Shown piece by piece: positions 6,305 through 60,632 of a stretch of 64,000 nucleotides of DNA (within the stretch, counting starts at the first letter, position 1; each line of letters starts with the position of its first letter). The notes beneath the pieces were generated by a model. That model had not been told where the DNA came from, ran no database searches, and saw only the letters and a list, made by a program, of their open reading frames with translations. A program made the translations under genes and the position numbers. Origin of the DNA: Hyphomicrobiales bacterium (GTDB lineage: Bacteria; Bacteroidota; Bacteroidia; Bacteroidales; JBGRPZ01); assembly GCA_041725915.1 (NCBI GenBank), contig JBGRPZ010000002.1:8593-72592 (forward strand). Direction: 5' to 3'.

Positions 6305-6751
6305 ATGAATAATGAAACAAGAATTACAAATTGGATCAACAACAACTTATCAGAGCTATCACAACTAGAGGATAATAAAGGAATTGATATTATGCATCAT
6401 TGTGGGGCAAAATGCTGTGAAGCATCAGTGCTTTATAATGGAGCATGCAAGATAAAAGATCAATTCGAGCATGAAACAAATACAGATATTATATTTGATG
6501 CATTCAAAAAAGCATATTACGACTCTGATAACTTCAGAAAAGATAAAGATGTAATTATATTAATATTTGAGAAATGCACTTGCCCAATGGCAAAACAAGG
6601 AGTAGACAACCCATTTCTATGCAATTGCACTGTTGGATATTCTTATAAAATATTTGAAACTCTTTTCCAAAAGAAAGTAAAGGTAGATTTAGAGACATCA
6701 ATATTAAATGGTCAAACAGTCTGCAAACAAAGAATAGAAATATTATCATGA
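6305..6751 (+). CDS. Cys-rich hypothetical protein (possible metal-binding)
   Basis: 148 aa with HHCGAKCCE, CTCPMAK and CNC motifs. The ORF lies between two terminators. No family recognised. Confidence 0.5.
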   Translation: MNNETRITNWINNNLSELSQLEDNKGIDIMHHCGAKCCEASVLYNGACKIKDQFEHETNTDIIFDAFKKAYYDSDNFRKDKDVIILIFEKCTCPMAKQGVDNPFLCNCTVGYSYKIFETLFQKKVKVDLETSILNGQTVCKQRIEILS

Positions 6752-6761
6752 TAATATAACT

Positions 6762-6798
6762 AATTGAGCCACCTTCAAAGTTAGAAAGCGGCTCAATT
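6762..6798. terminator. bidirectional terminator hairpin between convergent genes
   Basis: AATTGAGCC-N19-GGCTCAATT lies between stop 6751 (+) and stop 6834 (-). Confidence 0.6.
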
Positions 6799-6833
6799 AA
6801 TTCTTTTCATTCAAGTTTACCATCAATAAACTT

Positions 6834-9527
6834 TTATTTCATCACCTTAAAGGCCTGTTGACTTCCATTAGCCTCAAGTCTTATAATATAATTACCAGAA
6901 TTAAGATCTTGAGTAGAAAGAATAATTCTTTGATCACCAGAAGGCATATCATAGAAATCAGGAGTCATTTGTAGACTTCCTTTCATATCGAACACAGATA
7001 TTTTAATGTTCGTTGGTTTCTTCAGGTTCAGATCAATATTAAGTATATCCTTCATAGGTACAGGATAATAGCTATCAATCAAGAAATTATTCTCTGATTC
7101 CCGTTCATCAATTCCAGTAAGGCCTTTGTACTTTGCCTGATAAACTCCGCTTCCATGAGTACCGGCAATCATAACGCCATCCGATCTAACTCTCATTTGA
7201 CTCACAATAGAATTACCTACAGAAGAGATGCCTTGTTTTTCCCATACAATATCAGAACTGGAAATATCACTTGTAGCATATATTCCAACACTAGTACCAA
7301 CAAAGTAAGCATATTCATCATCATCAGAAGAAACAATATTACCCCATCTTACACTAGGTCCTAAAGAATTAGGATCATCAAGATTTCCACCAATATGATC
7401 AAAGGTAGCACCACCATCCTTACTGAGGTATATACTGTTGATATTATAGTTTGAGAAAACTACCATTATATGATTAGCATCTTTTGGATCTATACAGATA
7501 GAACTTATATAAGCGTTTTCAGGAAAATTGGAAGCAGTAATATCTTCCTTTACAATATCAGGAAGATGAGCATTCTTCACCCTAAAAAGTCGGCTATCCT
7601 GAGTACCAAATAAAAGTATATTCGCAGGTGTTGTAGAAACAGTAACCGCAGTAATAAATGTGTTTGTATAAGTCAATAATAGCTGTTCCCAAGCATTAAC
7701 AACATCTGCTGACTCAAGCATAAGATTTCTATAGATAAAATATGTACCTATATAATACATAATGTTACTATTATTAGGATCCAGAACATAAGGGTTGACA
7801 AACAGTGCAGCCGCAACATTAGGTCTTATTAGACTATAGTTAGTTTCAGAACTCCCAACTTTAGCCTGCATCAAATGCCCAAACTGAGTAGAAACATAAT
7901 AATATTGAGCACCATCAGCCACTTCACAAAAAGCACCATCACCAGAGATAGGCAAAGGACTCCAATCATCGGCTTCAGACTTCAATGTTGATGCGTATAA
8001 TCCTCTATCCTGCAAACCTCCAACAATAAAAGGCTGACTATTATTCACATCTTTATCAAAAGCAACAGAGTAGAATTGTCCAGTAGCATAGTTGGTGTTT
8101 AGAGATATCCACGTAGGTTCAGCAACAGTTACATCATCAATATATCTAACACCTCCGTCACTACCTGCGTAAAGTCTCTTTGGATGAGATTTTGAGAAGA
8201 AAGTCACATGATAATCCACCCAACTATTATCATATAGAGGCAAAGGTGTATTCTCGAAATTATAACCTCCCACAACCTTCCAATCTTGAGTTGTAAAACC
8301 AGTCATTGATCTATATAAACACGTCCCTCCAATAAAAACAATATCAGGATTGTCTTCAGAAACAGCAACAGTCATATCATAAGCACCCTGACTATCATAT
8401 CCATATTGATTATCAAGTGGGATGTTAGAAGTTAAGTCCATCCAGAAATCAGAAGTAGGATTATAGGCAAATAGCATATGATCTGAAAGACCTGTACCTG
8501 GGGTGTTAGAAAGGAAATACACTTTTTTATCTTCATCAGGAGAATACGCCATAATTGTACGATCAAAAGAAGGTGGGTAAGCAATAGGAGTAATCTTTGT
8601 CCATGTCTCTCCATCATCAGACTTATAGAAACCACTCATTACAGAGTTATAACCTCCACTCAAAGAGCTGGAACTTAAAGTCGCATATAGCTTTCCTTCA
8701 GGAGTTATCAATATATCAGTAGCACGAGACATGTTATTAGAGAACTCTCCCAGTTTCAATGTCCATGTATCACCCCCATCTTCAGATTTATAGATACCTC
8801 CAACAGTAGCAACATATACAACATCTTTATCTGTGATTGTATGATCAACACAGATATTCCAGCAATATTGATAAGGTGTTTGAAGTTTTGAGGGATCACT
8901 ATTAGAGGTAGAAGGTAGAAGCTGCCATGACTCACCATTATCTGTAGACTTAAAGATTCCAGTACCACGATATGGAGCACCAGTAACAGAAGCAGAGTTC
9001 CCCAGCAGTTCACCAGTTCCATAGTACCAAACATTTGTTTTCCCTTGTCTTTTATCCTGAGCCAAGCATGAGGAACTTAAGTTTGTGGAGTTTGAAGAAG
9101 TCTTTCTCCATGTTTCACCAGCATCTATGGATTTGTACATTCCTCCGGAAACACCTCCTGCAATTAAAATATCTTCGTTAGATACATCGAAAGCAAAAGC
9201 TCTGGTTCTTCCTCCCACATTTAAAGGGCCTGCAAACTTCCAATCATAATCATAAACTATCTTATCATCATTATTTTGTGTCTTCAGTAGTTGTTTTTGT
9301 AGTTGTTCATCAGCAAATTTTAGTTCTCTGAGCCTGTAGTTATCGGGAATCTCTCCTGTATGAGGATCTTTCAACATTCTTATCTCGTATTCTACACGAG
9401 CATTAACTCCATCTACACTTCCTACTGTGTATTTATTCTCTATTACTTTTTTCTTATCAAATACAAGAAGGATTACAACAACAGCTAGAACAGCAGTAAC
9501 AAAGGTTATCAGTATCTTTCTATTCAT
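6834..9527 (-). CDS. Secreted BNR/Asp-box repeat (sortilin/xyloglucanase-like beta-propeller) protein with a T9SS C-terminal sorting domain
   Basis: 897 aa with an N-terminal TM/signal segment. Repeated SxDxGxTW boxes: SIDAGETW, STDNGESW, SEDGGDTW, SDDGETW, SKDGGATF. The C-terminal roughly 80 aa (ILNIDLNLKKPTNIKISVFDMKG...YIIRLEANGSQQAFKVMK) looks like a Por secretion tail. Confidence 0.75.
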   Translation of the reverse strand: MNRKILITFVTAVLAVVVILLVFDKKKVIENKYTVGSVDGVNARVEYEIRMLKDPHTGEIPDNYRLRELKFADEQLQKQLLKTQNNDDKIVYDYDWKFAGPLNVGGRTRAFAFDVSNEDILIAGGVSGGMYKSIDAGETWRKTSSNSTNLSSSCLAQDKRQGKTNVWYYGTGELLGNSASVTGAPYRGTGIFKSTDNGESWQLLPSTSNSDPSKLQTPYQYCWNICVDHTITDKDVVYVATVGGIYKSEDGGDTWTLKLGEFSNNMSRATDILITPEGKLYATLSSSSLSGGYNSVMSGFYKSDDGETWTKITPIAYPPSFDRTIMAYSPDEDKKVYFLSNTPGTGLSDHMLFAYNPTSDFWMDLTSNIPLDNQYGYDSQGAYDMTVAVSEDNPDIVFIGGTCLYRSMTGFTTQDWKVVGGYNFENTPLPLYDNSWVDYHVTFFSKSHPKRLYAGSDGGVRYIDDVTVAEPTWISLNTNYATGQFYSVAFDKDVNNSQPFIVGGLQDRGLYASTLKSEADDWSPLPISGDGAFCEVADGAQYYYVSTQFGHLMQAKVGSSETNYSLIRPNVAAALFVNPYVLDPNNSNIMYYIGTYFIYRNLMLESADVVNAWEQLLLTYTNTFITAVTVSTTPANILLFGTQDSRLFRVKNAHLPDIVKEDITASNFPENAYISSICIDPKDANHIMVVFSNYNINSIYLSKDGGATFDHIGGNLDDPNSLGPSVRWGNIVSSDDDEYAYFVGTSVGIYATSDISSSDIVWEKQGISSVGNSIVSQMRVRSDGVMIAGTHGSGVYQAKYKGLTGIDERESENNFLIDSYYPVPMKDILNIDLNLKKPTNIKISVFDMKGSLQMTPDFYDMPSGDQRIILSTQDLNSGNYIIRLEANGSQQAFKVMK

Positions 9528-47677: not shown

Positions 47678-47714
47678 TTATTTTAATTAAACATAACTTT
47701 CATTCTACTTGCAT

Positions 47715-47755
47715 AAAGGCTCATCTAAATATTTATAGATGAGCCTTTCTATTTT
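47715..47755 (+). terminator. terminator of citDEF
   Basis: AAAGGCTCATCTA-N8-TAGATGAGCCTTT followed by a T-rich tract. Confidence 0.75.
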
Positions 47756-47858
47756 ACTTATCAATTAAAACCTACCACTTCTTTCGAAGTAAAAAAACAG
47801 GAGCCTCATACCCCTATGAAACTCCTCATAAAAACCCCTAAACACTTGTAATTAAAAA

Positions 47859-48055
47859 TTACATTGTGTTTCTAAAAATACTCATCACTATGTCAGCATA
47901 GTTGCTTGCATAAAATTTGTTGCCCACAAGCATCTTTCAATGCATTACCAAATCAATGTGTTAAAGTCCTCTTCCCCAACATCAATTTCTTTCAATTATA
48001 AAGATATATCTATAAAGTTTGATAATTCTCTTATTATATCAGCTTCCAGTGTTGG
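47859..48055 (-). pseudogene. Decayed 3' fragment of a second Fe-alcohol dehydrogenase gene
   Basis: Aligns by eye to 48458 through about 48655, the 3' end of the intact adh gene. It carries a 3-nt insertion and a 1-nt deletion (TTGTTGCC-CACAAGC versus TTGTTGCCCCACAAGC). The flanking terminator and promoter remnants are also duplicated. Confidence 0.6.
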
Positions 48056-48389
48056 AGCAATTATACACTTTATAAATCATCTTTCGTTTTTATATCTTCT
48101 TCATTATCTACAATAGCCCTAAGACTGCTTATTACACTATCTATATTAAGTAGATAAGTCAAAGGTATTTAATATTTTACCCTATAGCATAGCTTTTATT
48201 TTTCAAAAATAGTCTAAATTTTTCGCTGCTAGATTTAAGGCATTTCACAAGCCTTTCGAGAGTAATAAATAAGAAAACTCAGCTATTAAAGCTAGGTTGA
48301 AAATTAAAGATCTTACTGGTAAGAAGGAAAATCAAGGCACAAGCCTCCATTTTTATCTATCAATTAAAACCGATCACCTCTTTCGAAGT

Positions 48390-48422
48390 AAAAAATAAGA
48401 GCTTCATATTCCTATGAAGCTC
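48390..48422 (-). terminator. terminator of the adh gene
   Basis: GAGCTTCATA-ttcc-TATGAAGCTC with a T-run on the minus strand. Confidence 0.75.
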
Positions 48423-48457
48423 CTAATGAAAACTCATGAAACACTCGTAACTAAATA

Positions 48458-49609
48458 TTACATTGCGTTTCCAAAAATACTCACTATATCTGCATGAGAT
48501 GCTTGTATTGGATTTGTTGCCCCACAAGCATCTTTCAATGCGTTAGTAGCTAATGTGTCAAAATCCTCTTCCCTAACACCAAGTTCCTTTAATCCCGAAG
48601 GTATATTTATAGACTTCGATAACTCTTTTATAGCATTAATGGCTGCTTTTGCCCCTTCGTCATCACTCATAGCCGCTACGTCTACACCCATTGCTGAAGC
48701 AACAGCTTTCAATCTTGCAGCAGATACCTGAGCATTATATGTCTCTACATGAGGTAAAAGAATCGCATTACATACACCATGAGGAAGATCATAGAATCCA
48801 CCTAACTGGTGAGCCATAGCATGAACGTATCCTAAGGATGCGTTGTTAAATGCCATACCTGCCAAAAACTCAGCATAAGCCATATTATCTCTGGCTTTTA
48901 TATCTTCTCCATTTTCTACGGCAGCTTTCAGGTTATTTGTGATTAAAGTAACCGCCTGAAGTGCACATGCATCAGTTATTGGAGTAGCGGCAGTAGATAC
49001 ATAAGCTTCAACAGCATGTGTCAATGCATCCATACCTGTAGCTGCTGTCAATGATTTTGGCATAGCAACCATTAGATTCGCATCGTTTACACCCATAATT
49101 GGAGTAAAATGCTTATCTACTAAGGCCATCTTAACATGAGTATCTTCGTTTGTGATAATAGAAAAAATAGTCATCTCACTTGCTGTACCTGCTGTAGTAT
49201 TTACACAAACCAAAGGTAGTTGAGGTTTTGATGATTTATTTAGCCCTTCATAATCTTTAATGTCACCACCATTAGTAGCCAACAATGCAATACCTTTAGC
49301 TGCATCGTGAGGAGAACCTCCACCAAAAGAAATAACAAAGTCACAATTGTTTTCTTTCAGCATCGCTAAACCATTGTTTACATTAGAAACAGTAGGGTTT
49401 GGTTGTGTCTCATCAAAGATAACATACTCGATACCTGATTCGTCTAGCTCGGCAGTTAGCTTATCAACTAGTTTAATCTCAACAAGAGGCTTATCAGTTA
49501 CGATAAGTGCTTTCTTGAACCCCATTGTTGCTATATCTTTTGTAGCATCTTTTAAAGACCCCGGACCCATTACTGAAACAGGTGGCATAAAAAAACGAAC
49601 TGTACTCAT
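48458..49609 (-). CDS. Iron-containing (group III) alcohol dehydrogenase
   Basis: 383 aa, collinear with remembered Zymomonas AdhB / E. coli FucO-YiaY type enzymes ([35 protein letters not shown]). Confidence 0.92.
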
Positions 49610-49777
49610 CTTAGCTTCTTTTTTGTTCTTAAATAAACTTATCCATATGACATACTTTTATAGTGATATCAAGCGTTACATAAACAACTAACGCTAAATG
49701 GATAAACCAAAGATATTTGATATTTTGCCTTTGGGGATAGCTCTTATTTTTTTTAAATAGTCTAAATTTTTACAGCT

Positions 49778-50611
49778 ATGCTTAGGACATTTAACAGGGC
49801 ACTTGAAGTGGCAGATGGACTGCAATCAGACTTTGTAAGACTTTTATATTATGAATTTAATGATAAATTTCAGGATAATTATAAAAGCTATGAAAGCGTG
49901 CGTCTATGCACCATACTTGATGGAGTAAAACACGTCTCTATCAATGACGGCGAACAATTCTCTTACGATAAAAATCAGCTACTATTACTTCCTCCGCACT
50001 CTACTGTATATATGGATATTGAACGCCATACTAAAGCATTGGTGCTAGAGCTTAACGATAAGCTTATTACAGAAATTAAACATAAAACCTTTGTGGATGA
50101 GGCTTCTGAAATTGATGAGAATAAATTCTTTGTAGGGGCTAATAGTGCCGAAATCAATAATTGTCTTACAAGGATCAATACTACTGCTATTTCTCCTAAT
50201 AGAGATAAACAGTATCTTCTTGATACTCTAGCACGGGAACTTACTATATATATAACAAGGAGTTCTGGTGCAAGACAAATCCTGAACAATGAAGCTAATA
50301 CTATCTCTGCTAAGGCTATTGCCATGATGAGAGAGCATTTGACTCCTCCTGTTTCAATTCAATATATTGCTTTTACATTAAATATATCTGTTGCCTTCTT
50401 ATCTAATAAATTTAAGAAGGAAATTGGTATTACTCCCAGTACTTTTTATAATAATCTGAAATTACAGAAGGCCAAAAACCTGCTTTTAAACAAAAATGTG
50501 AATGAAACTTCATGGGAATTAGGCTTTGAAAATGTGAGTCACTTTATCCGACTTTTCACAAAAGTTTATGGCATTACTCCTCTTCAATGGAAAGTACAAA
50601 AACAACAATAA
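49778..50611 (+). CDS. AraC-family transcriptional regulator (divergent from adh)
   Basis: 277 aa with a C-terminal double HTH (...GFENVSHFIRLFTKVYGITPLQW). Confidence 0.85.
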   Translation: MLRTFNRALEVADGLQSDFVRLLYYEFNDKFQDNYKSYESVRLCTILDGVKHVSINDGEQFSYDKNQLLLLPPHSTVYMDIERHTKALVLELNDKLITEIKHKTFVDEASEIDENKFFVGANSAEINNCLTRINTTAISPNRDKQYLLDTLARELTIYITRSSGARQILNNEANTISAKAIAMMREHLTPPVSIQYIAFTLNISVAFLSNKFKKEIGITPSTFYNNLKLQKAKNLLLNKNVNETSWELGFENVSHFIRLFTKVYGITPLQWKVQKQQ

Positions 50612-50875
50612 AATGGAGATATAAAATACGCTTTCAATCTATTTCGCCTTATCAATGTATTAGCACAAATATTCTGATACAGAAATATTGACTTTGTCAT
50701 GCTTTTTGACCTCTTTTAATCTTCTACAGAATATGTTTATATACAGCGTTTTATAGATTAGCATCCCATTTTAATGGCATTCCAAATCAATAAAAAAGCT
50801 GTATCGAAACAAATATTAAGCATATATTACTGATAATAAGCTTAATAACACTAATTCTCAAACCGTGTAAATAAA

Positions 50876-50955
50876 AAAGCTCAGGCTTAAAATGAAAAAG
50901 CACGGGCTTAAAACTAATTTCAAGCCCGACAAACTTAATTTCAAGCTCTTCAGTA
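50876..50955 (+). repeat. Copy C of the AAGCnCGA-type short-repeat array
   Basis: AAGC units start at about 50877, 50898, 50922 and 50943 (periods 21/24/21). Includes hairpin CGGGCTT-N12-AAGCCCG. Confidence 0.6.
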
Positions 50956-51345
50956 TCTATTTTGCATACTTCACAACAAACTACCAGCCTTTCACTTGAC
51001 TATCAGATAGTTTATACACAAAATAACTATAAATCAAACTTTGCTTTCAAAAGCTACTATTAAATTCAAAAGTCATATTATCGAAGTATACAGCCCATAA
51101 ATATCACCTAAATGACTTATAATATGGTTTTTCATTTAGGCTAAGTCAAAATGCTCTTCTTCCATATTTGGATAAATCACTTCGAATATAAAAATATAAT
51201 TAACCTTAATAGTGAATAACTATAATCATCCTGTTTTAGCCTCTATCAAAATATTTTTGTTTCTCTTCCTCTTTAATTTCAACAAAAAGAACACATTGTT
51301 AATAAGCTGTTCATAAGTTTTATAATTGGTATAAAAATAAAAAAG

Positions 51346-51353
51346 TATCTTTG
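51346..51353 (+). promoter_or_regulatory. candidate -7 box (TATCTTTG) driving the riboswitch transcript
   Basis: Ends 8 nt before the P1 stem of the riboswitch. Confidence 0.5.
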
Positions 51354-51361
51354 CCATGATT

Positions 51362-51517
51362 CAATGGTTGATAAATCATTTATCAATAATAAGGGAATCC
51401 TGTGAGAATCAGGAGCTGTCCCCGCAGCTGTAAACCTTTATATCAATTTCAAAAAGCCACTGTTACAAAATGGGAAGGCGAAATTGACAACAAGGCGAGC
51501 CAGAAGACCTACCATTG
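51362..51517 (+). promoter_or_regulatory. Cobalamin (B12) riboswitch aptamer
   Basis: P1 is CAATGGT/ACCATTG. The core AAUAAGGGAAUCCUGUGAGAAUCAGGAGCUGUCCCCGCAGCUGUAA, then GCCACUG...UGGGAAGGC and the B12 box GCCAGAAGACCUACC align closely with the remembered E. coli btuB leader. Confidence 0.9.
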
Positions 51518-51756
51518 AGCATTAATGTCATCGCTTCGGGTGAAAGTGAACTGTAAAGAATCCTATATATATGGATTTTGCGACGGTGATTCACATCATT
51601 TCTTGTGGCTTTTTCCTTTCAACCACAATTAATACCAAGCGTTGATATATTGTTTCAACAACACGAATTATTACTAAACAATTTCTCTTTTAGGAGAGAT
51701 ACTGTTTTTGGATTTTATTTATTAAAATAACTCTGGACTTGTTATTTAATGATGTG

Positions 51757-51787
51757 AGCCGTTTCAGACCGAAACGGCTTTTTTTAT
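51757..51787 (+). terminator. strong rho-independent terminator downstream of the riboswitch
   Basis: AGCCGTTTC-agacc-GAAACGGCT followed by T8. Confidence 0.8.
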
Positions 51788-51885
51788 TTTCAGGGCATCC
51801 CTTTTCTATCCTTTAACGACATTTAGGAAAAATGTCTTTTTCATTGTACTTTCGTCATTCATTCGATAACAAAAAACAGATTACA

Positions 51886-53553
51886 ATGCGTAAAATTATT
51901 CTTACTCCTGTTGTCGCTCTAGGTCTGATGGTTGGGGCTACAAGCTGTCAGCCAAAACCAGAGGCGCAAAAAGACGAAAATAAAGTTGTCACAGTTAAAG
52001 ATCCTGTTTTGGAGAAAAAAGTTCAAAACTTTGCAAAGGTCAAATTAACTACAGATATTTCTCATTTAAGTCAGAGTGAAAAGGAAGTTCTAAAGCTTCT
52101 TTTCAAAGCTGCTGACCTAATGAATACTGTTTATTGGAAGCAGACATTATGCGGCGAAGAGCCTTTCTTGAATTCTTTGAGCTACAATCCAGATGCACAA
52201 GCATATGCAAAGATCAATTATGGTCCATGGGATAGATTAGATAACAATCTACCATTTATTTGCTATTGTGGTACAAAACCTTTAGGAGCAAACTTCTACC
52301 CAAAGAACATGACAAAAGCAGAGTTCGAGAAGTGGGAAGATCCTAACAAAACCAGCCTTTATACTCTAATCCGTAGAGATGATAAAGGAAACTTAAAATC
52401 TGTATGGTATAGCGAAGCTTATAAAGAAGAGTTTTCAAAGGCTGCTGAGCTATTGAAAAAGGCTGCTACTCTTGCTGAAGACCAAGGTTTGAAGAACTAT
52501 CTAAATAAAAGAGCTGAAGCACTTATCTCTAACGACTATTTCGAATCTGATCTAGCTTGGTTAGATATGAAAAGTAGTAATATTGACTTTGTAGTAGGGC
52601 CAATAGAAAACTATGAAGATCAGTTATTCGGTTATAAAGCTGCTGCTGAGGCATTCATTTTAATTAAAGATGTTGAGTGGAGTAATAAACTTCAGCATTT
52701 TGCACAATTCCTTCCTCAACTACAGGCAGATCTTCCTGTTGCAGCAAAATATAAGCAAGACAAAATCGGTAGTAAAACAGATTTAAATGCTTATGATGCT
52801 GTTTATTATGCAGGTGATTGTAATGCAGGCAGTAAAACTATTGCTATCAACCTTCCTAATGATGAGCGTGTTCATGTTGAAAAAGGAACTCGTCGTCTTC
52901 AGCTAAAGAATTCAATGAAAGCTAAGTTTGACAAGATTCTTATTCCTATATCAAATGTTCTGATTGCTCCTGAGCAAAGAAAGAACATCACTTTTAATGC
53001 ATTTTTTGCAAATACAATGTTCCATGAAATTGCTCACGGATTGGGAATCAAAAATACTATCACAGGTAAAGGAACAGTTCGTAAAGCTCTAAAAGAGCAG
53101 TATTCAGCTATTGAAGAAGGTAAAGCAGATATCTTAGGACTATACTTAGTAACAAAACTTCATGAAATGGGAGAAACTCCAGACGCTGATCTAATGGACA
53201 ATTATGTTACATTTATGGCTGGTATCTTCCGTTCAGTACGTTTTGGTGCTGCTAGTGCTCATGGTAAAGCAAATATGATTCGCTTTAACTATTTCCTTGA
53301 AAAAGGAGCTTTTGTAAGAAGTGAAGATGGTACATATGCTATAGATTTTGAAAAGATGAAAGCTGCTTCAAAATCTCTTACTCAAGAGATATTAAAGATT
53401 CAAGGTGATGGAAATTATGATGCTGCAAAGAATTGGGTTGCTACTCAAGGTATTATCACTCCAAAATTACAAAAGGATCTTGATCGCTTGACTAGTGCGG
53501 GTATTCCAAAGGATATTGTCTTTGAACAAGGGCCTGCTGAATTGGGTTTATAG
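51886..53553 (+). CDS. Lipoprotein zinc peptidase, M49 (DPP III)-like with an HExxH variant motif
   Basis: The start is moved to the internal ATG, which gives MRKIILTPVVALGLMVGATSC (lipobox). FHEIAHGLG plus EEGKADILG resemble the two M49 zinc motifs (HExxGH / EExxAE) in the pentapeptide variant. Confidence 0.6.
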   Translation: MRKIILTPVVALGLMVGATSCQPKPEAQKDENKVVTVKDPVLEKKVQNFAKVKLTTDISHLSQSEKEVLKLLFKAADLMNTVYWKQTLCGEEPFLNSLSYNPDAQAYAKINYGPWDRLDNNLPFICYCGTKPLGANFYPKNMTKAEFEKWEDPNKTSLYTLIRRDDKGNLKSVWYSEAYKEEFSKAAELLKKAATLAEDQGLKNYLNKRAEALISNDYFESDLAWLDMKSSNIDFVVGPIENYEDQLFGYKAAAEAFILIKDVEWSNKLQHFAQFLPQLQADLPVAAKYKQDKIGSKTDLNAYDAVYYAGDCNAGSKTIAINLPNDERVHVEKGTRRLQLKNSMKAKFDKILIPISNVLIAPEQRKNITFNAFFANTMFHEIAHGLGIKNTITGKGTVRKALKEQYSAIEEGKADILGLYLVTKLHEMGETPDADLMDNYVTFMAGIFRSVRFGAASAHGKANMIRFNYFLEKGAFVRSEDGTYAIDFEKMKAASKSLTQEILKIQGDGNYDAAKNWVATQGIITPKLQKDLDRLTSAGIPKDIVFEQGPAELGL

Positions 53554-53944: not shown

Positions 53945-56182
53945 ATGAAAAAATCGTTATTATCATTAGTACTATTTATAGCAGCCAGCTTTGGTGCTGT
54001 TAAAGCAAACCCACTACCTGATGAAGGAATGTGGCTTCCTATGTTTGTTGAAAGACTTAACTATGTTGACATGGAGAAAATGGGTCTTCAACTTACTGCT
54101 GAAGAGATCTATTCTATCAACAATAGCAGTCTAAAAGATGCTATCGTAGGTTTAAGTAATGGACCTAAGCCTAGAGGTTTCTTCTGTTCAGGAGAGATCG
54201 TTTCAGGTAAAGGTTTGATGTTTACAAACCACCACTGTGGATATAATGCAATCGCTAATCACAGTACTGTAGAACATGATTATCTTAAAGATGGATTCTG
54301 GGCTTATAATCTAAATGAAGAGCTTAAGAATGAGAACCTAAGTGCTTCATTCCTTCAGAGAGTAGAGAATGTTACTGACAGTATCGTTCCTTTTCTTACT
54401 CCTGAGATGACAGAAGCTGAGCGTGGTGATAAAGTAAGAGAAATTCGTAAGCGTATTGAGAAAAGAGTTTCTGAAGATGGAAAACTTAATCCTGTAATCA
54501 AATCTTTCTTTGGTGGGAACGAATATTATATGTTTGTATATAAAACATATACTGATGTTCGTCTTGTAGGAGCTCCTCCTTCTGCTGTTGGTAAATTTGG
54601 TGGCGACACTGATAACTGGATGTGGCCTCGTCATACTGGTGACTTCTCTATTTTCCGTGTTTATGCTAATGAAAATAATGAGCCTGCAGAATATTCAGAA
54701 GATAATAAACCTTATCAACCAAAATGGCATCTTCCTGTTTCTCTAAATGGAGTTAAAAAAGATGATTATTCTATGATTTGGGGATTCCCTGGAGGTACAG
54801 AAAGATTCTTAACTTCATATGGTGTTGAATCTAAACTTGACAGCGAGTTCCCTGGACTAATTGAAACTCTTGGTGCTAAACTAGCTGCATGGAAAAAAGG
54901 TATGGACGCTGATCCTGCTGTAAGAATTCAATATGCTTCAAAATATGCAAGCACTGCTAATGGTTGGAAAAACTTTATTGGTCAGACTAAAGGTCTAAAG
55001 AGATTAAAGATATATGATAAGAAAGTTGCTATTGAAGTAGCTTTTGAAAAGTGGGTGAATGCTGACGAAAAGAGAAAAGAAAAATATGGAGACGCTTTAA
55101 AGCTTATCAAAGAAGGTTATGACGAACAAAGTACAGTGTTGAAAGATCTTCTATATACAAGCTATTGCAGCTTAAATGGCTCTGAAATTATAGGGTATGC
55201 TCAACAGTTTTCTGGTCTACAAAGTCTTCTTAAGGACAAAAAGAAAAACAAAAAGAAAATTGAAAAGATCATAAATAGTCTTAAAGAATACAACAGTACA
55301 CATTTCAGCAATATGAATACTAATATTGATCGTGATGTTGTTGCTGCTCTATTCGAAGTTTATGCTAAAAACATAGATCCTGCAAAATATCCTGAAGCTT
55401 TCACTAAAATGCTTGAGAAGTTCGACAATGACTACAATGCCATTGCAGACTATTTATATACTAAGTCTTATTTCTCTTCTCAAGAAAAAGTAGAAGAGCT
55501 TTTAAATAAGCCTTCAGCAAAGAAGATTGCAAAAGATCCTGCTTTTATGCTAGCAGCTGGATTCTTGAATAATATTCAAGCTCTTGCTCCTGCTTATCGT
55601 AGCGCTTTCCCAAAGATTGCAAAAGGAGATCGTCTATTTATCGCTGGTCTAAGAGAAATGAATCCTGATACTAAGTACTATCCTGATGCTAACTCTACAA
55701 TGCGTTTTACTTTTGGTTCTGTTAAGGATTACTATCCTGCTGATGCTGTACATTATGACTTTATCACTACTGCTGAAGGTATTCTTGAAAAAGAAGATCC
55801 AACAAATGATGAGTTTGTTGTTCCTACAAAACTTAGTAAGTTGATAAAAGAAAAGAACTATGGCCAATATGCTGATGAGAATGGCGAACTAGTTACTTGT
55901 TTCCTTACAACTAATGATATCACTGGAGGTAACTCTGGTAGTGGTGTTATTAATGGTAGAGGTGAACTTATAGGTATCGCTTTTGATGGTAACTGGGAAG
56001 CTATGAGTGGTGATATCACTTTTGAACCAGAACTACAAAGAACAATATGTGTTGATTCAAGATATGTTCTTTTCATCATTGACAAATATGCTGGAGCTAA
56101 AAACCTAATCGAAGAGCTTACTATTGTAAAGGGTGAACCTACAGAGAAAGCTTTAGAATTAGAAGCTACAGAGATAAAATAA
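53945..56182 (+). CDS. S46-family dipeptidyl-peptidase (DPP7/DPP11-like)
   Basis: 745 aa with a signal peptide, the DEGMWLP N-terminus, catalytic His in TNHHCG and Ser in GGNSGSGV. Confidence 0.9.
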   Translation: MKKSLLSLVLFIAASFGAVKANPLPDEGMWLPMFVERLNYVDMEKMGLQLTAEEIYSINNSSLKDAIVGLSNGPKPRGFFCSGEIVSGKGLMFTNHHCGYNAIANHSTVEHDYLKDGFWAYNLNEELKNENLSASFLQRVENVTDSIVPFLTPEMTEAERGDKVREIRKRIEKRVSEDGKLNPVIKSFFGGNEYYMFVYKTYTDVRLVGAPPSAVGKFGGDTDNWMWPRHTGDFSIFRVYANENNEPAEYSEDNKPYQPKWHLPVSLNGVKKDDYSMIWGFPGGTERFLTSYGVESKLDSEFPGLIETLGAKLAAWKKGMDADPAVRIQYASKYASTANGWKNFIGQTKGLKRLKIYDKKVAIEVAFEKWVNADEKRKEKYGDALKLIKEGYDEQSTVLKDLLYTSYCSLNGSEIIGYAQQFSGLQSLLKDKKKNKKKIEKIINSLKEYNSTHFSNMNTNIDRDVVAALFEVYAKNIDPAKYPEAFTKMLEKFDNDYNAIADYLYTKSYFSSQEKVEELLNKPSAKKIAKDPAFMLAAGFLNNIQALAPAYRSAFPKIAKGDRLFIAGLREMNPDTKYYPDANSTMRFTFGSVKDYYPADAVHYDFITTAEGILEKEDPTNDEFVVPTKLSKLIKEKNYGQYADENGELVTCFLTTNDITGGNSGSGVINGRGELIGIAFDGNWEAMSGDITFEPELQRTICVDSRYVLFIIDKYAGAKNLIEELTIVKGEPTEKALELEATEIK

Positions 56183-56284: not shown

Positions 56285-58252
56285 CTATTTGACAATAATC
56301 TTTCTTACTGTTTCATAATCCTGAGATCCGACTTTTATCAGATATAAACCTTTATCTATTGTTGATAGATCTACGATTGAATTTCTACTTGTTAACTGTT
56401 TTTCAAGAATGATTTGACCATCTATAGTTACAAGTTGTAATTTAGCTTGATCACTGTTCTGAAGATTTATATTTACTATACCTTTTGTTGGATTAGGAGA
56501 AAACAAAAAGTATGAAGGCTTCTTCTGATCGATAATACCTGTAGTAATATTTGATATCTTACTCAATGATCTCCTATTTGGATCAAAGGATATTTTACTC
56601 ACCTTTTGATCTACTTCTACTTCAAACTGCTCTGAGTTCTTTGTCTGCTTCAATCTGAGTTCTTTCTCGCTTCCATCTTCAAATCTTAATTCAAGATAAA
56701 GTGTTGTCTTAAATAATGGTGTCTCTGATGACGAAGTAGTCTGTTCAGAATCAATGATAAGCTTATTATTATTCTGACTATACTTAATCCTATAGATAGG
56801 ATAACCATGACCAAAATACCATTGATTAAAGAAATCATCCCAATTCTCTCCTGTTATCTCTTCACATACTTCCTTAAAATCGACTCCAAGTGCAGTTTTG
56901 TTTGCATATCGCTTTTGGAAAGTCTTAAGTATATTGAAGAACTTATCATCATCATTAATCTCATTTCTTATCATGTGGACAAGCAATGCTCCTTTCTTAT
57001 ATGTCAAATGATAGCTAAATATTCTCGTATCATTTCCTTCATACACTTCCTCATCAGGAACATATGTTGATCCTGAATCATATCGGGTAGCTGCCTCTAT
57101 AGCTTCATTCATCCACCTTTGGGCAGGGCTTTTGTATCCAAGTTTCTCAAGAGCTAAATACTCAGAATAAGAAGCAAAACCTTCATTTACCCATATATCA
57201 TTCCATGTACCACAAGTTACATTATCACCAAACCATTGATGCCCTAATTCATGAGCACTTATGGTAAATTCAAGGCTTCCCATGGTACTCATTGTCTGAT
57301 GTTCCATAGCTCCTCCCAGATATGCCATTATGTGCCCATACTTTTCTTTATGGAAAGGATATAATGAATATAAGTCACTAAACAACTCTATCATGCCAGG
57401 AACTTTATCTAATTTCGGCTTATGGGTGGATAGTTGATTTTTATATACATAATTAACAATAGGTATAGAATCGCCATTCATTGCCTGTGGCTTGGCATAA
57501 TTAATATATTCTTCATATTCTGCTACAGCAAAAGAAATCAAATAATATGCAATAGGATAATGACTCTCCCATTCATATCTTTTCTTATCTCCATCTAGAT
57601 CAACAACTCTCTTCAGGATTCCTTGAGATCCTGCCATATATTTACTATCACAAGTAAGATAGACATAGCAAGAATCTGCTTTGTCTGTCAACTCTTGTTT
57701 TACAGGAAACCATTGCTTAGCCCTTGATGGCTCTGATAAAGTCCAAGTCACTCTAGCTCCTGACTGATTATATCTCTCAGAATTTATTCCTGAAAAGAAA
57801 CCTCCGAAGATAGGTTTTCCAGAATAGTTTATAGCTACTTCTATTAGATCTCCCTTTTTATAGTTCTCTAACTTTATAGAAACATTGTCTACTTCTCTAA
57901 TAAAATTCTTGCTTTCTCCATTAACTTTAATAGAATGAATATCTAATTCTGGAATTAATTCAAAAGAAAACTTAGGCAACTGATCAGCAACAACTTCAGC
58001 CTTAATAGTAGCTGTACCAGAAATTTCAGTTGATTCTGGAGTTACATTTAAATCTAAGAAATAAAACTTCACATCATAATCATGTATACTTTCATCTGGT
58101 AGTAATCTTTTTAAGATTTTGTTCTTATCTACTTCAGAATGACAATGCTGCTTACAAACCCCTACACAACCTTTACTTAAATCACTTTCTTGTCCAATCA
58201 CATATTGGCTAAAAAAGAAAAATAAACTAGTTAAATAGAAAAAATATCTCAT
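56285..58252 (-). CDS. M1-family aminopeptidase with a T9SS C-terminal sorting domain
   Basis: 655 aa. GAMEHQ, HELGHQWFG...WVNEGFASY (HExxH-18-E). The C-terminal roughly 75 aa (FSPNPTKGIVNINL...GLYLIKVGS...KIIVK) is Por-tail-like. Confidence 0.88.
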   Translation of the reverse strand: MRYFFYLTSLFFFFSQYVIGQESDLSKGCVGVCKQHCHSEVDKNKILKRLLPDESIHDYDVKFYFLDLNVTPESTEISGTATIKAEVVADQLPKFSFELIPELDIHSIKVNGESKNFIREVDNVSIKLENYKKGDLIEVAINYSGKPIFGGFFSGINSERYNQSGARVTWTLSEPSRAKQWFPVKQELTDKADSCYVYLTCDSKYMAGSQGILKRVVDLDGDKKRYEWESHYPIAYYLISFAVAEYEEYINYAKPQAMNGDSIPIVNYVYKNQLSTHKPKLDKVPGMIELFSDLYSLYPFHKEKYGHIMAYLGGAMEHQTMSTMGSLEFTISAHELGHQWFGDNVTCGTWNDIWVNEGFASYSEYLALEKLGYKSPAQRWMNEAIEAATRYDSGSTYVPDEEVYEGNDTRIFSYHLTYKKGALLVHMIRNEINDDDKFFNILKTFQKRYANKTALGVDFKEVCEEITGENWDDFFNQWYFGHGYPIYRIKYSQNNNKLIIDSEQTTSSSETPLFKTTLYLELRFEDGSEKELRLKQTKNSEQFEVEVDQKVSKISFDPNRRSLSKISNITTGIIDQKKPSYFLFSPNPTKGIVNINLQNSDQAKLQLVTIDGQIILEKQLTSRNSIVDLSTIDKGLYLIKVGSQDYETVRKIIVK

Positions 58253-58405
58253 TAATATAGTTTTAAAATTAATTGATACGCAATATTAACTCTAATAGGT
58301 TGCTAATTTATTAATATATAAAGTTTTTATTATAATTTAGTTAGCCTTATTTTATCTACTACTTAAAATATTTTATTTTTCTTTTGGTAATTCAAAAATC
58401 TTATA

Positions 58406-58413
58406 TATATTTG
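58406..58413 (+). promoter_or_regulatory. -7 box (TATATTTG) of the tRNA-Asn promoter
   Basis: Ends 22 nt upstream of the tRNA 5' end. Confidence 0.5.
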
Positions 58414-58435
58414 CGCTGGTTTTAACAATAGACCT

Positions 58436-58509
58436 GCCTCTTTAGCTCAGTTGGTTAGAGCATCTGACTGTTAATCAGAGGGTCCTTGGTTCGAGTCCAA
58501 GAAGAGGCG
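58436..58509 (+). tRNA. tRNA-Asn (anticodon GTT)
   Basis: 74-nt cloverleaf. Acceptor stem GCCTCTT/AAGAGGC, anticodon stem TCTGA/TCAGA, loop CTGTTAA, T-arm CTTGG-TTCGAGT-CCAAG. Confidence 0.95.
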
Positions 58510-58512
58510 CAA

Positions 58513-58545
58513 ACCGGAGTAACAATGTTACTTCGGTTTTTTTTA
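58513..58545 (+). terminator. terminator after tRNA-Asn
   Basis: ACCGGAGTAAC-aat-GTTACTTCGGT followed by T8. Confidence 0.8.
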
Positions 58546-58550
58546 TGCAT

Positions 58551-58582
58551 AAAAAAACAGGTGACATGTTAATATCACCTGT
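58551..58582 (-). terminator. terminator of the 58602-60632 gene
   Basis: CAGGTGA-N10-TCACCTG with a T-run on the minus strand. Confidence 0.65.
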
Positions 58583-58601
58583 TATCATGGGTTATATGAA
58601 T

Positions 58602-60632
58602 TTAATGGACGATTAATACCTTTTGAGTCATTTCATATTTTCCGCTACTAAAATGAATGAAATAAGCTCCTTGAGGCAAATGATCGCCATCGCTGTTGGT
58701 TGCATTCCAATAAATCTTATGATCGCCTGAATTCAATGTTTTATCAACTATTATACCAATCTTTCTGCCACTTATATCATAAAGGGTCAGTTTCACTTTT
58801 TGAGGTTGGTTAATATTTAAGTAAATATAAGCATCTTTTGATACAGGATTAGGATAAACACTAAAATTAGTTTCCTTCATAAGGTCATTAGCCTGAGAAA
58901 TAACTGTCTTATTGATCTTCAAACGAGAATAGAAGCTATTGTTTGTAGATGTTCTAAATTCAATGCTATCAATTAGATAATCATCTCTTAATTCATTATA
59001 AGGATTTACTTCTATAGTAAATTGAAGCTTATCATTATGATCTAATCTTAGAGGTAATTTAGGTCTGTCTTTTATCTTCCAATAATCTTGATCCTCTTCT
59101 ATATAATTAATTATAACAGGATCAGAAGTATTATTTGTAAGAGTGACATCTTGGCTTATTTGATTTTTATCAAAAGTTGAAATACTAGGAGTGAAGTTAA
59201 TGATATCAGTCAAATAAGGAACAACGGTAAAGACGTGAGGATCACTAGCCCCAATATAAGGAGATTTTATTCTTCTGTTTGATTCATCAGCTGCATATAA
59301 ATAATACTCAACTTCATCACCGACCATTGCATTCAATTGTGTAGTATATTTATCACCACTCACATAGGTCATTGTCTTATTCATCCATGCTCCATCATTG
59401 ATACGATAATAAATTTTCACAGAATCAGAATATATGTCCTCTCCGCTATAGGCTATTATATCCGTATTTATAGAAAAGTTATCCGCAAACTTTACTTCTC
59501 CCTGAAGAGGAATATGAGAAATATATAACATTCCAAGATCTGGAATTCCTCTTGTACGACAATGAAGTGCATCTGTATTCATCCATGACGAATATGTAAT
59601 ACCTTGAATGGTATATCCTGGCATTGCTTCCTGATACTTTAATAGAGCAGCATTATCGTTAGGATTACCTGATATAGGAACAAAAACATGATCATTAACA
59701 ATCAAACTGTTTGTATATGCAGTAATTGCCTGTCCTCCAGCAGTAAATACTCTATATACTTCGTAAGGCTTTCCATAAGAACTATTATGTGTCTTAAAGT
59801 AATTTGCAGCAGCCTCATAAGCAGCATATCTTGAATCAGATTCTGCAACTTCAGCAATCATAACCTTATCAACATCAAGAAACTTTCCCCAACAATCTAT
59901 ATGCTTAATATAATCACCAAGAGGATCATCTATTATCATATGATCACTAATACCAAGATAGTCAAGATGCTTTTGTGCTATTTGTGCATGAGTCTTATTA
60001 GAATTCTCTTCCCAGACTAATTCTGTTTGGGCTGCTTTACCATAACCATCACACATATAATTACCACCCGTTTGCGTAACATTCATTCCATAAACAGGAA
60101 CATTTAGATGTGTTCCCATAGCAATAGGTACATCATTATCATAAGGTCGAGGTCTATTATAAGGGAAGTTACAAATACCAGGATTTCTATTTCCGTCGAA
60201 AAAGAACCATGGGCCGTAATCTCTTATCCAAAAAGAATCTGTTCTTATATCTGCAAACTCTATATTGTCCATATTAACACCTGCAGCCTGATATGTCGAT
60301 GTTATAGAACTTATTTCATATGCTCTACAAAGAGTCGTCACAGGTACAACTTCAGCCATTTGCTTTACTAGCTCAACTGGAATACGAAAAGGGTATCTCA
60401 CTAATACTCCTTGCATTTGTTCAAATTCAGCACATTGTCTTATAGGTCCTGTAGGAGGGTCAGTTTCTGTAAAAGCTCTTGTCTCTTTAAAAGGAGCTTT
60501 CATTTCTTCCTTTGAAAGATAATGATATCTTTCCCAATTATTTAGATCCTTTTTTGTTTGGCTATAAGAATCCGTAGAACAAAATATTGAACAAGTCAAA
60601 AGTCCAATAAATAAATAGTAATATACTTTCAT
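58602..60632 (-). CDS. Secreted agmatine deiminase / Porphyromonas-type peptidyl-arginine deiminase family protein with a T9SS C-terminal domain
   Basis: 676 aa with a signal peptide. FWIRDYGPWFF and TDALHCRT (catalytic Cys region) are typical of the guanidino-modifying PAD_porph fold. The C-terminus (FSVYPNPVSKDAYIYLN...GAYFIHFSSG...KVLIVH) is Por-tail-like. Confidence 0.8.
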   Translation of the reverse strand: MKVYYYLFIGLLTCSIFCSTDSYSQTKKDLNNWERYHYLSKEEMKAPFKETRAFTETDPPTGPIRQCAEFEQMQGVLVRYPFRIPVELVKQMAEVVPVTTLCRAYEISSITSTYQAAGVNMDNIEFADIRTDSFWIRDYGPWFFFDGNRNPGICNFPYNRPRPYDNDVPIAMGTHLNVPVYGMNVTQTGGNYMCDGYGKAAQTELVWEENSNKTHAQIAQKHLDYLGISDHMIIDDPLGDYIKHIDCWGKFLDVDKVMIAEVAESDSRYAAYEAAANYFKTHNSSYGKPYEVYRVFTAGGQAITAYTNSLIVNDHVFVPISGNPNDNAALLKYQEAMPGYTIQGITYSSWMNTDALHCRTRGIPDLGMLYISHIPLQGEVKFADNFSINTDIIAYSGEDIYSDSVKIYYRINDGAWMNKTMTYVSGDKYTTQLNAMVGDEVEYYLYAADESNRRIKSPYIGASDPHVFTVVPYLTDIINFTPSISTFDKNQISQDVTLTNNTSDPVIINYIEEDQDYWKIKDRPKLPLRLDHNDKLQFTIEVNPYNELRDDYLIDSIEFRTSTNNSFYSRLKINKTVISQANDLMKETNFSVYPNPVSKDAYIYLNINQPQKVKLTLYDISGRKIGIIVDKTLNSGDHKIYWNATNSDGDHLPQGAYFIHFSSGKYEMTQKVLIVH

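Follow-up and report, generated by a model that had tools for sequence, protein, structure and literature searches.

The stretch of DNA analyzed here (the window) comprises 64,000 nucleotides of contig JBGRPZ010000002.1 (assembly GCA_041725915.1, positions 8,593 to 72,592). Its source is a poorly sampled Bacteroidales bacterium, for which the collections hold no genome closer than 73–80% amino acid identity. The window carries an orphan cobalamin riboswitch on the forward strand at 51348–51530, which is the subject of this work. Upstream of it, at 48458–50611, lies a divergent gene pair assigned by Pfam to an iron-type alcohol dehydrogenase (Fe-ADH) and an AraC-family regulator with an AraC_N domain. 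The first gene downstream (51886–53553, +) encodes an M49-family lipoprotein peptidase, as a preliminary description of the locus had proposed (PF03571, E = 6.5e-15). Translation probably starts at the ATG at 51886, which gives MRKIILTPVVALGLMVGATSC, a lipoprotein signal peptide with a lipobox. An S46 peptidase gene (PF10459) follows at 53945–56182 (+). Between the AraC and M49 genes is a gap of 1.27 kb that is AT-rich and free of open reading frames (ORFs). As described before, neither strand of 50612–51831 holds an ORF of 60 codons or more, the longest encoding 43 amino acids. The statement that no recognizable B12-related gene accompanies the riboswitch also stood, as a Pfam scan of the 28 larger window ORFs returned no B12-related family and the next gene is that of the M49 peptidase.

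The aptamer was evaluated with Rfam. Family RF00174 matched 51348–51530 (+) with 117.3 bits (E = 9e-29), compared to a gathering score of 31.5 bits, and the match covered model positions 1–189 of 189 without truncation. It was the sole riboswitch match in the 64-kb window, and a permissive Rfam scan of 50500–51950 returned nothing credible apart from it. The cmscan alignment contained all the core landmarks: GGGAA in J3/4, GUGAGAAUC, CCCCGCAGCUGUAA, the CCCCG loop of L5, the P6 extension GCCACUG...GGGAAGGC, and the B12 box AGCCAGAAGACCU. By these measures, the aptamer is real and intact, as had been claimed, and an ordinary member of its family. A P6 extension of this kind is usual for the classical adenosylcobalamin (AdoCbl) class, to which the aptamer is assigned here by this feature alone. 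It is predicted to bind a corrinoid and to regulate in a ligand-dependent manner. The TAnnTTTG box noted earlier was recovered by pattern search as TATCTTTG (51346–51353, +), a Bacteroidota-type −7 promoter box 8 nt before P1. Motifs of this type are not enriched across the window (84 found versus 84 expected), and they are present before several window genes and both tRNAs.

The aptamer is followed by a tail of more than 200 nt containing several hairpins. Directly 3′ of P1, a P13-like hairpin (51528–51548, +, −4.7 kcal/mol) has a GCUUCGGGUGAAAG holding CGGG, which is complementary to CCCG in the L5 loop. Both its position and its composition are as expected for the kissing-loop partner in the cobalamin riboswitch class, and it is a candidate for pairing with L5 in this way. 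Hairpin H2 (51546–51594, +, −14.8 kcal/mol) comes next. Its outer stem, GUGAACUGU/ACGGU..UUCAC, has a 5′ side at 51546–51554, abutting the P13-like hairpin, and a 3′ side at 51583–51594. Its inner stem, GAAUCC/GGAUUU, buries an ATG at 51571 and corresponds to the hairpin AATCC (51559–51563)-N9-GGATT (51573–51577) that the preliminary description had correctly reported to half bury this codon. Further downstream, hairpin H5 and a U-rich stretch (51676–51712, +, −8.9 kcal/mol) form a weak terminator-like site that fails the terminator scan, and hairpin H6 (51725–51747, +) was predicted by folding with the loop UCUGGACUU.

The tail ends in an intrinsic terminator, T2 (51756–51787, +, −14.7 kcal/mol), consisting of a 10-bp stem at 51756–51780, the loop AGACC, and a U-run. 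The terminator scan supported the strong terminator recognized earlier at 51757–51787, which had been taken as the end of a gene-less transcript. That interpretation needs revision, as T2 is probably the riboswitch's own attenuator and expression platform, given its pairing with a candidate anti-terminator. The 5′ arm of T2 with six preceding bases (51750–51765) was searched with RNAduplex against the whole tail (51518–51745). The best duplex (−18.0 kcal/mol) joined 51581–51599 to 51750–51764, including the T2 5′ arm, in 14 pairs interrupted by a 3-nt bulge. This energy was reached by 9 of 2000 dinucleotide shuffles of the tail, and the 277 other window segments of 228 nt all fell short of it. 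The candidate anti-terminator strand, CGACGGUGAUUCACAUCAU (51581–51599, +), is also drawn on by the outer stem of H2. The minimum free energy fold of 51526–51768, which mimics transcription by omitting the T2 3′ arm, contains the anti-terminator helix, and T2 forms once its 3′ arm is included. The 5′ strand of P1 had appeared as an anti-terminator in one unconstrained fold; its duplex, at −10.1 kcal/mol, was no stronger than the shuffle mean, and this candidate was rejected.

A comparable leader was found in a metagenome-assembled genome (MAG) of Draconibacterium orientale. The cobalamin riboswitch of this locus (L003, 1174–7626) scores 97.1 bits, and its platform is of the terminator type. 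In order, the locus contains the riboswitch, a terminator-like hairpin, genes for an 804-amino-acid protein with a type IX secretion system (T9SS) tail and a 662-amino-acid TonB-dependent receptor, and an M49 gene. A TACATTTG box lies at the same distance from P1 as TATCTTTG in the window, and the GCUUUCGGUGAAAAG motif after the aptamer is common to both, with the form GCUU(U)CGG(G)UGAAAG. The post-P1 strand at 1353–1371 pairs with the 5′ arm of the terminator at ~1432–1458, with an energy reached by 13 of 1000 shuffles, and this terminator lies 40 nt before the first gene of the B12-type operon. Bacteroidota btuB-type B12 leaders, as represented by L003, resemble the window element in the box directly before P1, the full RF00174 aptamer, the P13-like hairpin, and a post-P13 strand complementary to the 5′ arm of the downstream terminator. 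They differ in the distance from aptamer to terminator (~75 nt in L003 versus ~225 nt in the window) and in preceding B12 genes, whereas the window element is followed by a peptidase gene with its own promoter-like block. Two features set the window unit apart from the usual B12 leaders of Bacteroidota, namely its long platform and the lack of a B12 gene after it. A cobalamin riboswitch leader of a TonB-dependent transporter has been described in Flavobacterium psychrophilum (PMC9723704).

These observations led us to tentatively prefer, with confidence that stays limited, the reading of the element as an attenuating leader that is complete but lacks a B12 gene and that would at present act through read-through into the peptidase genes, selected or not. 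The leader would be ~430 nt long (~51360 to 51787), driven by its own promoter, and would act by transcription attenuation with T2 as the expression platform. Ligand binding would fix P1, P13, and H2, sequestering 51581–51599, so that T2 forms and transcription stops. Without B12, 51581–51599 would instead pair with 51750–51764, and the polymerase would read through. The sign of this switch is assumed from the behavior usual for the class rather than derived, cobalamin riboswitches being usually OFF switches. The leader would end ~35 nt before the promoter-like block of the M49 gene. Because no B12 gene follows, B12-repressed read-through into the M49 and S46 genes, on top of their own promoter, would be its sole cis output today.

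A second copy of the unit was present in metagenome data. Three coral-metagenome runs (X1–X3) contained the window sequence without differences at a word depth of 3–6, and the same runs contained a diverged second copy (copy B) at a depth of 3.5–4.8. On a 330-nt contig of copy B, positions 19–75 align to 51493–51549, the 3′ end of the aptamer and P13, with 7 mismatches and 2 gaps. Positions 236–273 of the same contig align to T2 at 51751–51788, with 33 of 38 positions identical and 5 mismatches. Since these parts co-occur on one contig, with which the loose-end lengths are consistent, copy B shares the architecture of aptamer, P13, tail, and strong terminator. An aptamer core is found on another contig of 226 nt, with 2 mismatches to 51391–51436 and with P2 and P6 that differ from those of the window. 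The spacing from the equivalent of 51549 to the terminator alignment is 161 nt in copy B versus 202 nt in the window, and the middle of the tail could not be aligned at 80% between the two. No copy B fragment was found in the window or in any of the fetched loci.

Parts of the tail are nevertheless kept between the copies. After the equivalent of 51549, copy B reads CTGCAATGAACCTTTATATCGGGGGTTTAC, where the window reads CTGTAAAGAATCCTATATATATGGATTTTGC. The inner stem of H2 is kept through a change on both sides, GAAUCC/GGAUUU becoming GAACC/GGUUU. Directly before its terminator, copy B reads ...TTTCTGGACTTTATTTTTC in runs X1–X3, keeping the loop sequence of H6. After the terminator, it reads GGTCTGAAAATTAGGAATTTAATATGTTTT and has an ATG 23 nt past the end of the T2 alignment, which is not significant in 30 AT-rich letters. 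Hairpins 84–89% identical to T2 were also observed after M49 genes of distant Bacteroidales (L007 5857–5898, L089 5857–5898, and L014 2992–3039). Terminators of this AGCCGTTTC...GAAACGGCT type thus recur in unrelated places.

The second copy bears directly on a small ORF in the tail. The 24-codon ORF at 51571–51645 (+) translates to MDFATVIHIISCGFFLSTTINTKR, as reported earlier. Its ATG, which had been called the first after P1, is preceded by another at 51525, eight bases past P1, that opens a 35-codon ORF (51525–51632, MSSLRVKVNCKESYIYGFCDGDSHHFLWLFPFNHN) with no homologue and no called gene. Either ORF could encode a B12-controlled small hydrophobic peptide, and the ATG at 51571 lies ~25 nt past P13, where a regulated start would be expected, half buried in a hairpin. 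Yet copy B has TATATCGGG where the window has TATATGGAT, and so keeps the hairpin without an ATG. The base at −3 of this ATG is T, not the A favored at Bacteroidota start sites. The 24-codon ORF had no called gene in a 15-billion-protein collection by exact look-up and no match among 5.8 billion proteins. Because the hairpin is kept by compensatory change and the ATG is not, the ORF is probably accidental, a by-product of H2, and we regard a regulated peptide as very improbable.

That peptide had been proposed together with a B12-responsive small RNA (sRNA), and the RNA half of the proposal fares better, though we consider it unlikely. The unit would be a stand-alone riboswitch-controlled RNA gene with at least two sibling copies, T2 would be a mere terminator, and the ~430-nt RNA or a shorter B12-terminated form would act in trans by base-pairing or by sequestering a protein. 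The unit is cleanly bounded by the promoter box and the terminator, and neither side shows a coding remnant. The second copy has the same architecture at similar depth in the same runs. Both copies keep H2 and the H6 loop sequence but cannot be aligned at 80% in mid-tail. The tail is also more structured than its shuffles (z = −3.6). On the other hand, a constitutive terminator needs no significant complementarity between 51581–51599 and the T2 5′ arm, and the terminator scan found no other strong terminator to set a short form apart from a long one. There is no opposite-strand gene for antisense action, no conservation outside this one sample was found among the fetched loci, and no target was identified. 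Paralogous riboswitch leaders in Bacteroidota mostly precede paralogous B12 uptake operons. We know of no riboswitch-controlled sRNA in this phylum, and a search of the open-access literature found no description of an orphan cobalamin riboswitch or riboswitch-sRNA in it.

Precedents for such an RNA exist elsewhere. EutX and Rli55 are AdoCbl riboswitch-controlled sRNAs of Enterococcus and Listeria (PMC5821096, PMC8079631). The window element, known here from sequence alone, resembles them in having an aptamer at its 5′ end, no credible ORF, and an intrinsic terminator. In EutX and Rli55, an attenuator directly follows the aptamer, and an effector part with ANTAR-binding hairpins and a second terminator come after it. 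The window has, in contrast, only weak hairpin-plus-U sites between the aptamer and T2, and its sole strong terminator stands at the very end and is seemingly regulated. Those sRNAs also belong to another phylum, and no eut or ANTAR context was seen in the window, where ANTAR-type motifs were not searched for. In Listeria, AspocR is a B12 riboswitch-controlled RNA antisense to pocR, the gene of an AraC-type regulator (PMC8079631). The window riboswitch likewise lies beside an AraC-family gene without an ORF of its own, but it cannot be antisense to that gene because it is on the same strand, 735 nt downstream, and transcribes away. Based on Pfam, the AraC/Fe-ADH pair in the window also appears yqhC/yqhD-like rather than pocR/pdu. 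SreA and SreB, terminated transcripts of S-adenosylmethionine (SAM) riboswitches in Listeria, act in trans (PMC8079631) and show that a terminated leader could itself be the active molecule, although they still precede their cognate genes.

To place the attenuating leader in its genomic context, we compared the flanking genes with their orthologues. The best matches to the peptidase were 69% identical in a collection with one genome per GTDB species, 68% in JGI metagenomes, and 73–74% in the 5.8-billion-protein collection. A riboswitch search upstream of M49 covered 160 orthologous loci (~1.6 Mb) with a covariance model derived from the aptamers of the window and of L003, and 30 M49 loci were checked directly with Rfam. 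A strict regular expression for the cobalamin core misses the L003 riboswitch, and Rfam scans and the custom covariance model were used instead. Only L003 had a cobalamin riboswitch upstream of M49. In genomes with ~10 such riboswitches, chance should by our estimate place about one of them within 5 kb upstream of M49 across ~165 loci. The single occurrence matches this expectation, and L003 was therefore not taken to speak for an ancestral connection. There, the M49 gene begins 64 nt past the TonB-dependent receptor gene, with a TAAATTCG box in between. Just above threshold, Acido-Lenti-1 RNA (RF01687) was observed in two Bacteroidales/Lentimicrobiaceae MAGs at contig ends near M49 loci (L001 3406–3451 and L002 2–48).

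With identities of at most 69% throughout, the 160 peptidase loci were too distant for fine synteny. A riboswitch is absent from L161 and L162, the two loci closest by peptidase, and L161 keeps the M49–S46 pair. An 11-mer, TTGTACTTTCG, is identical in the window, L161, and L162, 42–45 nt from the ATG within a conserved block of ~35 nt. In the window, this promoter-like block, T.TAGGA...TTGTACTTTCG (51826–51857, +), sits 42 nt before the ATG and downstream of T2, so the M49 gene has its own promoter-like element. Homology to the relatives on the M49 side starts between 51793 and 51826. On the other side, AraC orthologues 76–80% identical were found on three contigs (L163, L164, and L165), none with M49 or a riboswitch. 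All three keep the Fe-ADH/AraC pair (~6680–8840), and the gene after AraC differs in each. The single MAG with both AraC and M49 carries them on different contigs. The 1.27-kb gap is therefore a synteny breakpoint, as neighbors on the two sides separate in relatives. In the synteny comparison suggested in the preliminary description, the closest relatives (73–80% amino acid identity) lack a riboswitch at either flank and only the distant L003 has B12-type genes in between, with no relative in the collections near enough to reveal the ancestral arrangement. Of its proposal that the peptidase gene is a new regulon member controlled by read-through, a conserved member is not supported, given the M49 promoter-like block and the orthologous loci without a riboswitch, while B12-dependent read-through is mechanistically plausible because T2 looks like a regulated attenuator.

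The breakpoint also fits an inert relic, the third proposal made for this locus, which we regard as doubtful. A rearrangement or deletion would have removed the cognate B12 operon, probably of the btuB type, leaving an undecayed leader with unselected read-through. The Fe-ADH/AraC and M49/S46 pairs are each kept, on separate contigs with different neighbors, the gap between them is AT-rich and free of ORFs, and an aptamer may stay intact long past its loss of function. The distant L003 has a riboswitch, a T9SS-tail protein, a TonB-dependent receptor, and M49 in a row, but one riboswitch within 5 kb among ~165 loci is what chance predicts, and L003 is no evidence of ancestry. Deletion scars were sought and not found. 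The 804- and 662-amino-acid proteins of L003 gave nothing better than E = 0.26 in tblastn against 50600–51900 and showed no homologue in other parts of the window. Scanning 50612–51886 with Pfam in six frames and searching the three forward frames of 51531–51886 against 5.8 billion proteins each returned nothing at E ≤ 10. None of ten small gap ORFs was a called protein among 15 billion by exact look-up, and in blastn the gap matched the full set of 165 loci only through generic terminators. A deletion would moreover have to fall within ~35 nt past T2, just short of the M49 promoter-like block, while sparing promoter, aptamer, P13, H2, anti-terminator, and T2.

Several other features were observed in and around the gap. 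On the minus strand, a terminator-like hairpin (50928–50903) followed by TGCTTTTTCA lies inside two 21-nt tandem duplications (50869–50946). A TAAGTTTG box on the same strand (50937–50930) directly abuts this hairpin, and no minus-strand gene lies upstream; an unannotated minus-strand RNA could be present in the gap. A second ORF-poor stretch of ~780 nt (47678–48457, GC 0.28–0.31) separates the genes for the citrate lyase alpha-subunit and Fe-ADH. The Fe-ADH/AraC pair resembles a yqhD/yqhC-type aldehyde-reductase module. Beyond the S46 gene, two minus-strand genes at 56285–60632 encode an M1 peptidase and a Porphyromonas-type peptidyl-arginine deiminase, each with a T9SS C-terminal sorting domain. 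Together with M49 and S46, which they adjoin, they form a cluster of genes for secreted or surface proteolysis.

The reading as an attenuating leader would account for the anti-terminator, the architecture of copy B, and the parallel with L003, and a number of observations weigh against it. Of the platform elements, the P13-like hairpin is present and 51581–51599 pairs with the T2 5′ arm, while the folds lack a ligand-dependent relay: none of those computed gave a clean one from P1/P13 to H2, and forcing an alternative P13 produced no clear switch between the H2 and terminator states. With ~225 nt between aptamer and T2, the distance is large for kinetic coupling, and ~150 nt lie enclosed by the anti-terminator. 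A gene with its own promoter between attenuator and start codon is an abnormal riboswitch layout. To our knowledge, M49 peptidases have no link to B12, and their association with the riboswitch is not conserved at orthologous loci. The likeness of T2 in copy B is, taken alone, weak evidence of homology because T2-like hairpins follow distant M49 genes. Beyond the aligned segments, the view of copy B covers 30 letters at each boundary. No RNA-seq run holding the window sequence was found. The predicted read-through could be selected, or it could be a by-product of rearrangement or leader duplication.

Herein, our analysis rereads the strong terminator of this locus as a probable attenuator and the small ORF as probably accidental. 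It is conceivable, if rather improbable, that such long-platform cobalamin riboswitch units form a small functional family in this lineage of Bacteroidales. At least two copies are present in this sample, and the output would be either a B12 response of surface dipeptidyl-peptidase genes (M49–S46) or a B12-sensing RNA acting in trans. If active, the element would show that a riboswitch can survive, or be put to new use, with its attenuator complete and away from any gene for its ligand. B12 control would then be imposed on peptide-catabolism genes, or exerted in trans, extending the B12 regulon of Bacteroidota and adding a long-range anti-terminator design in which ~150 nt are enclosed. If it is a relic, it would call for caution in reconstructing regulons from riboswitch matches. 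Either way, a strong terminator after an orphan aptamer should be considered first as the aptamer's own expression platform.

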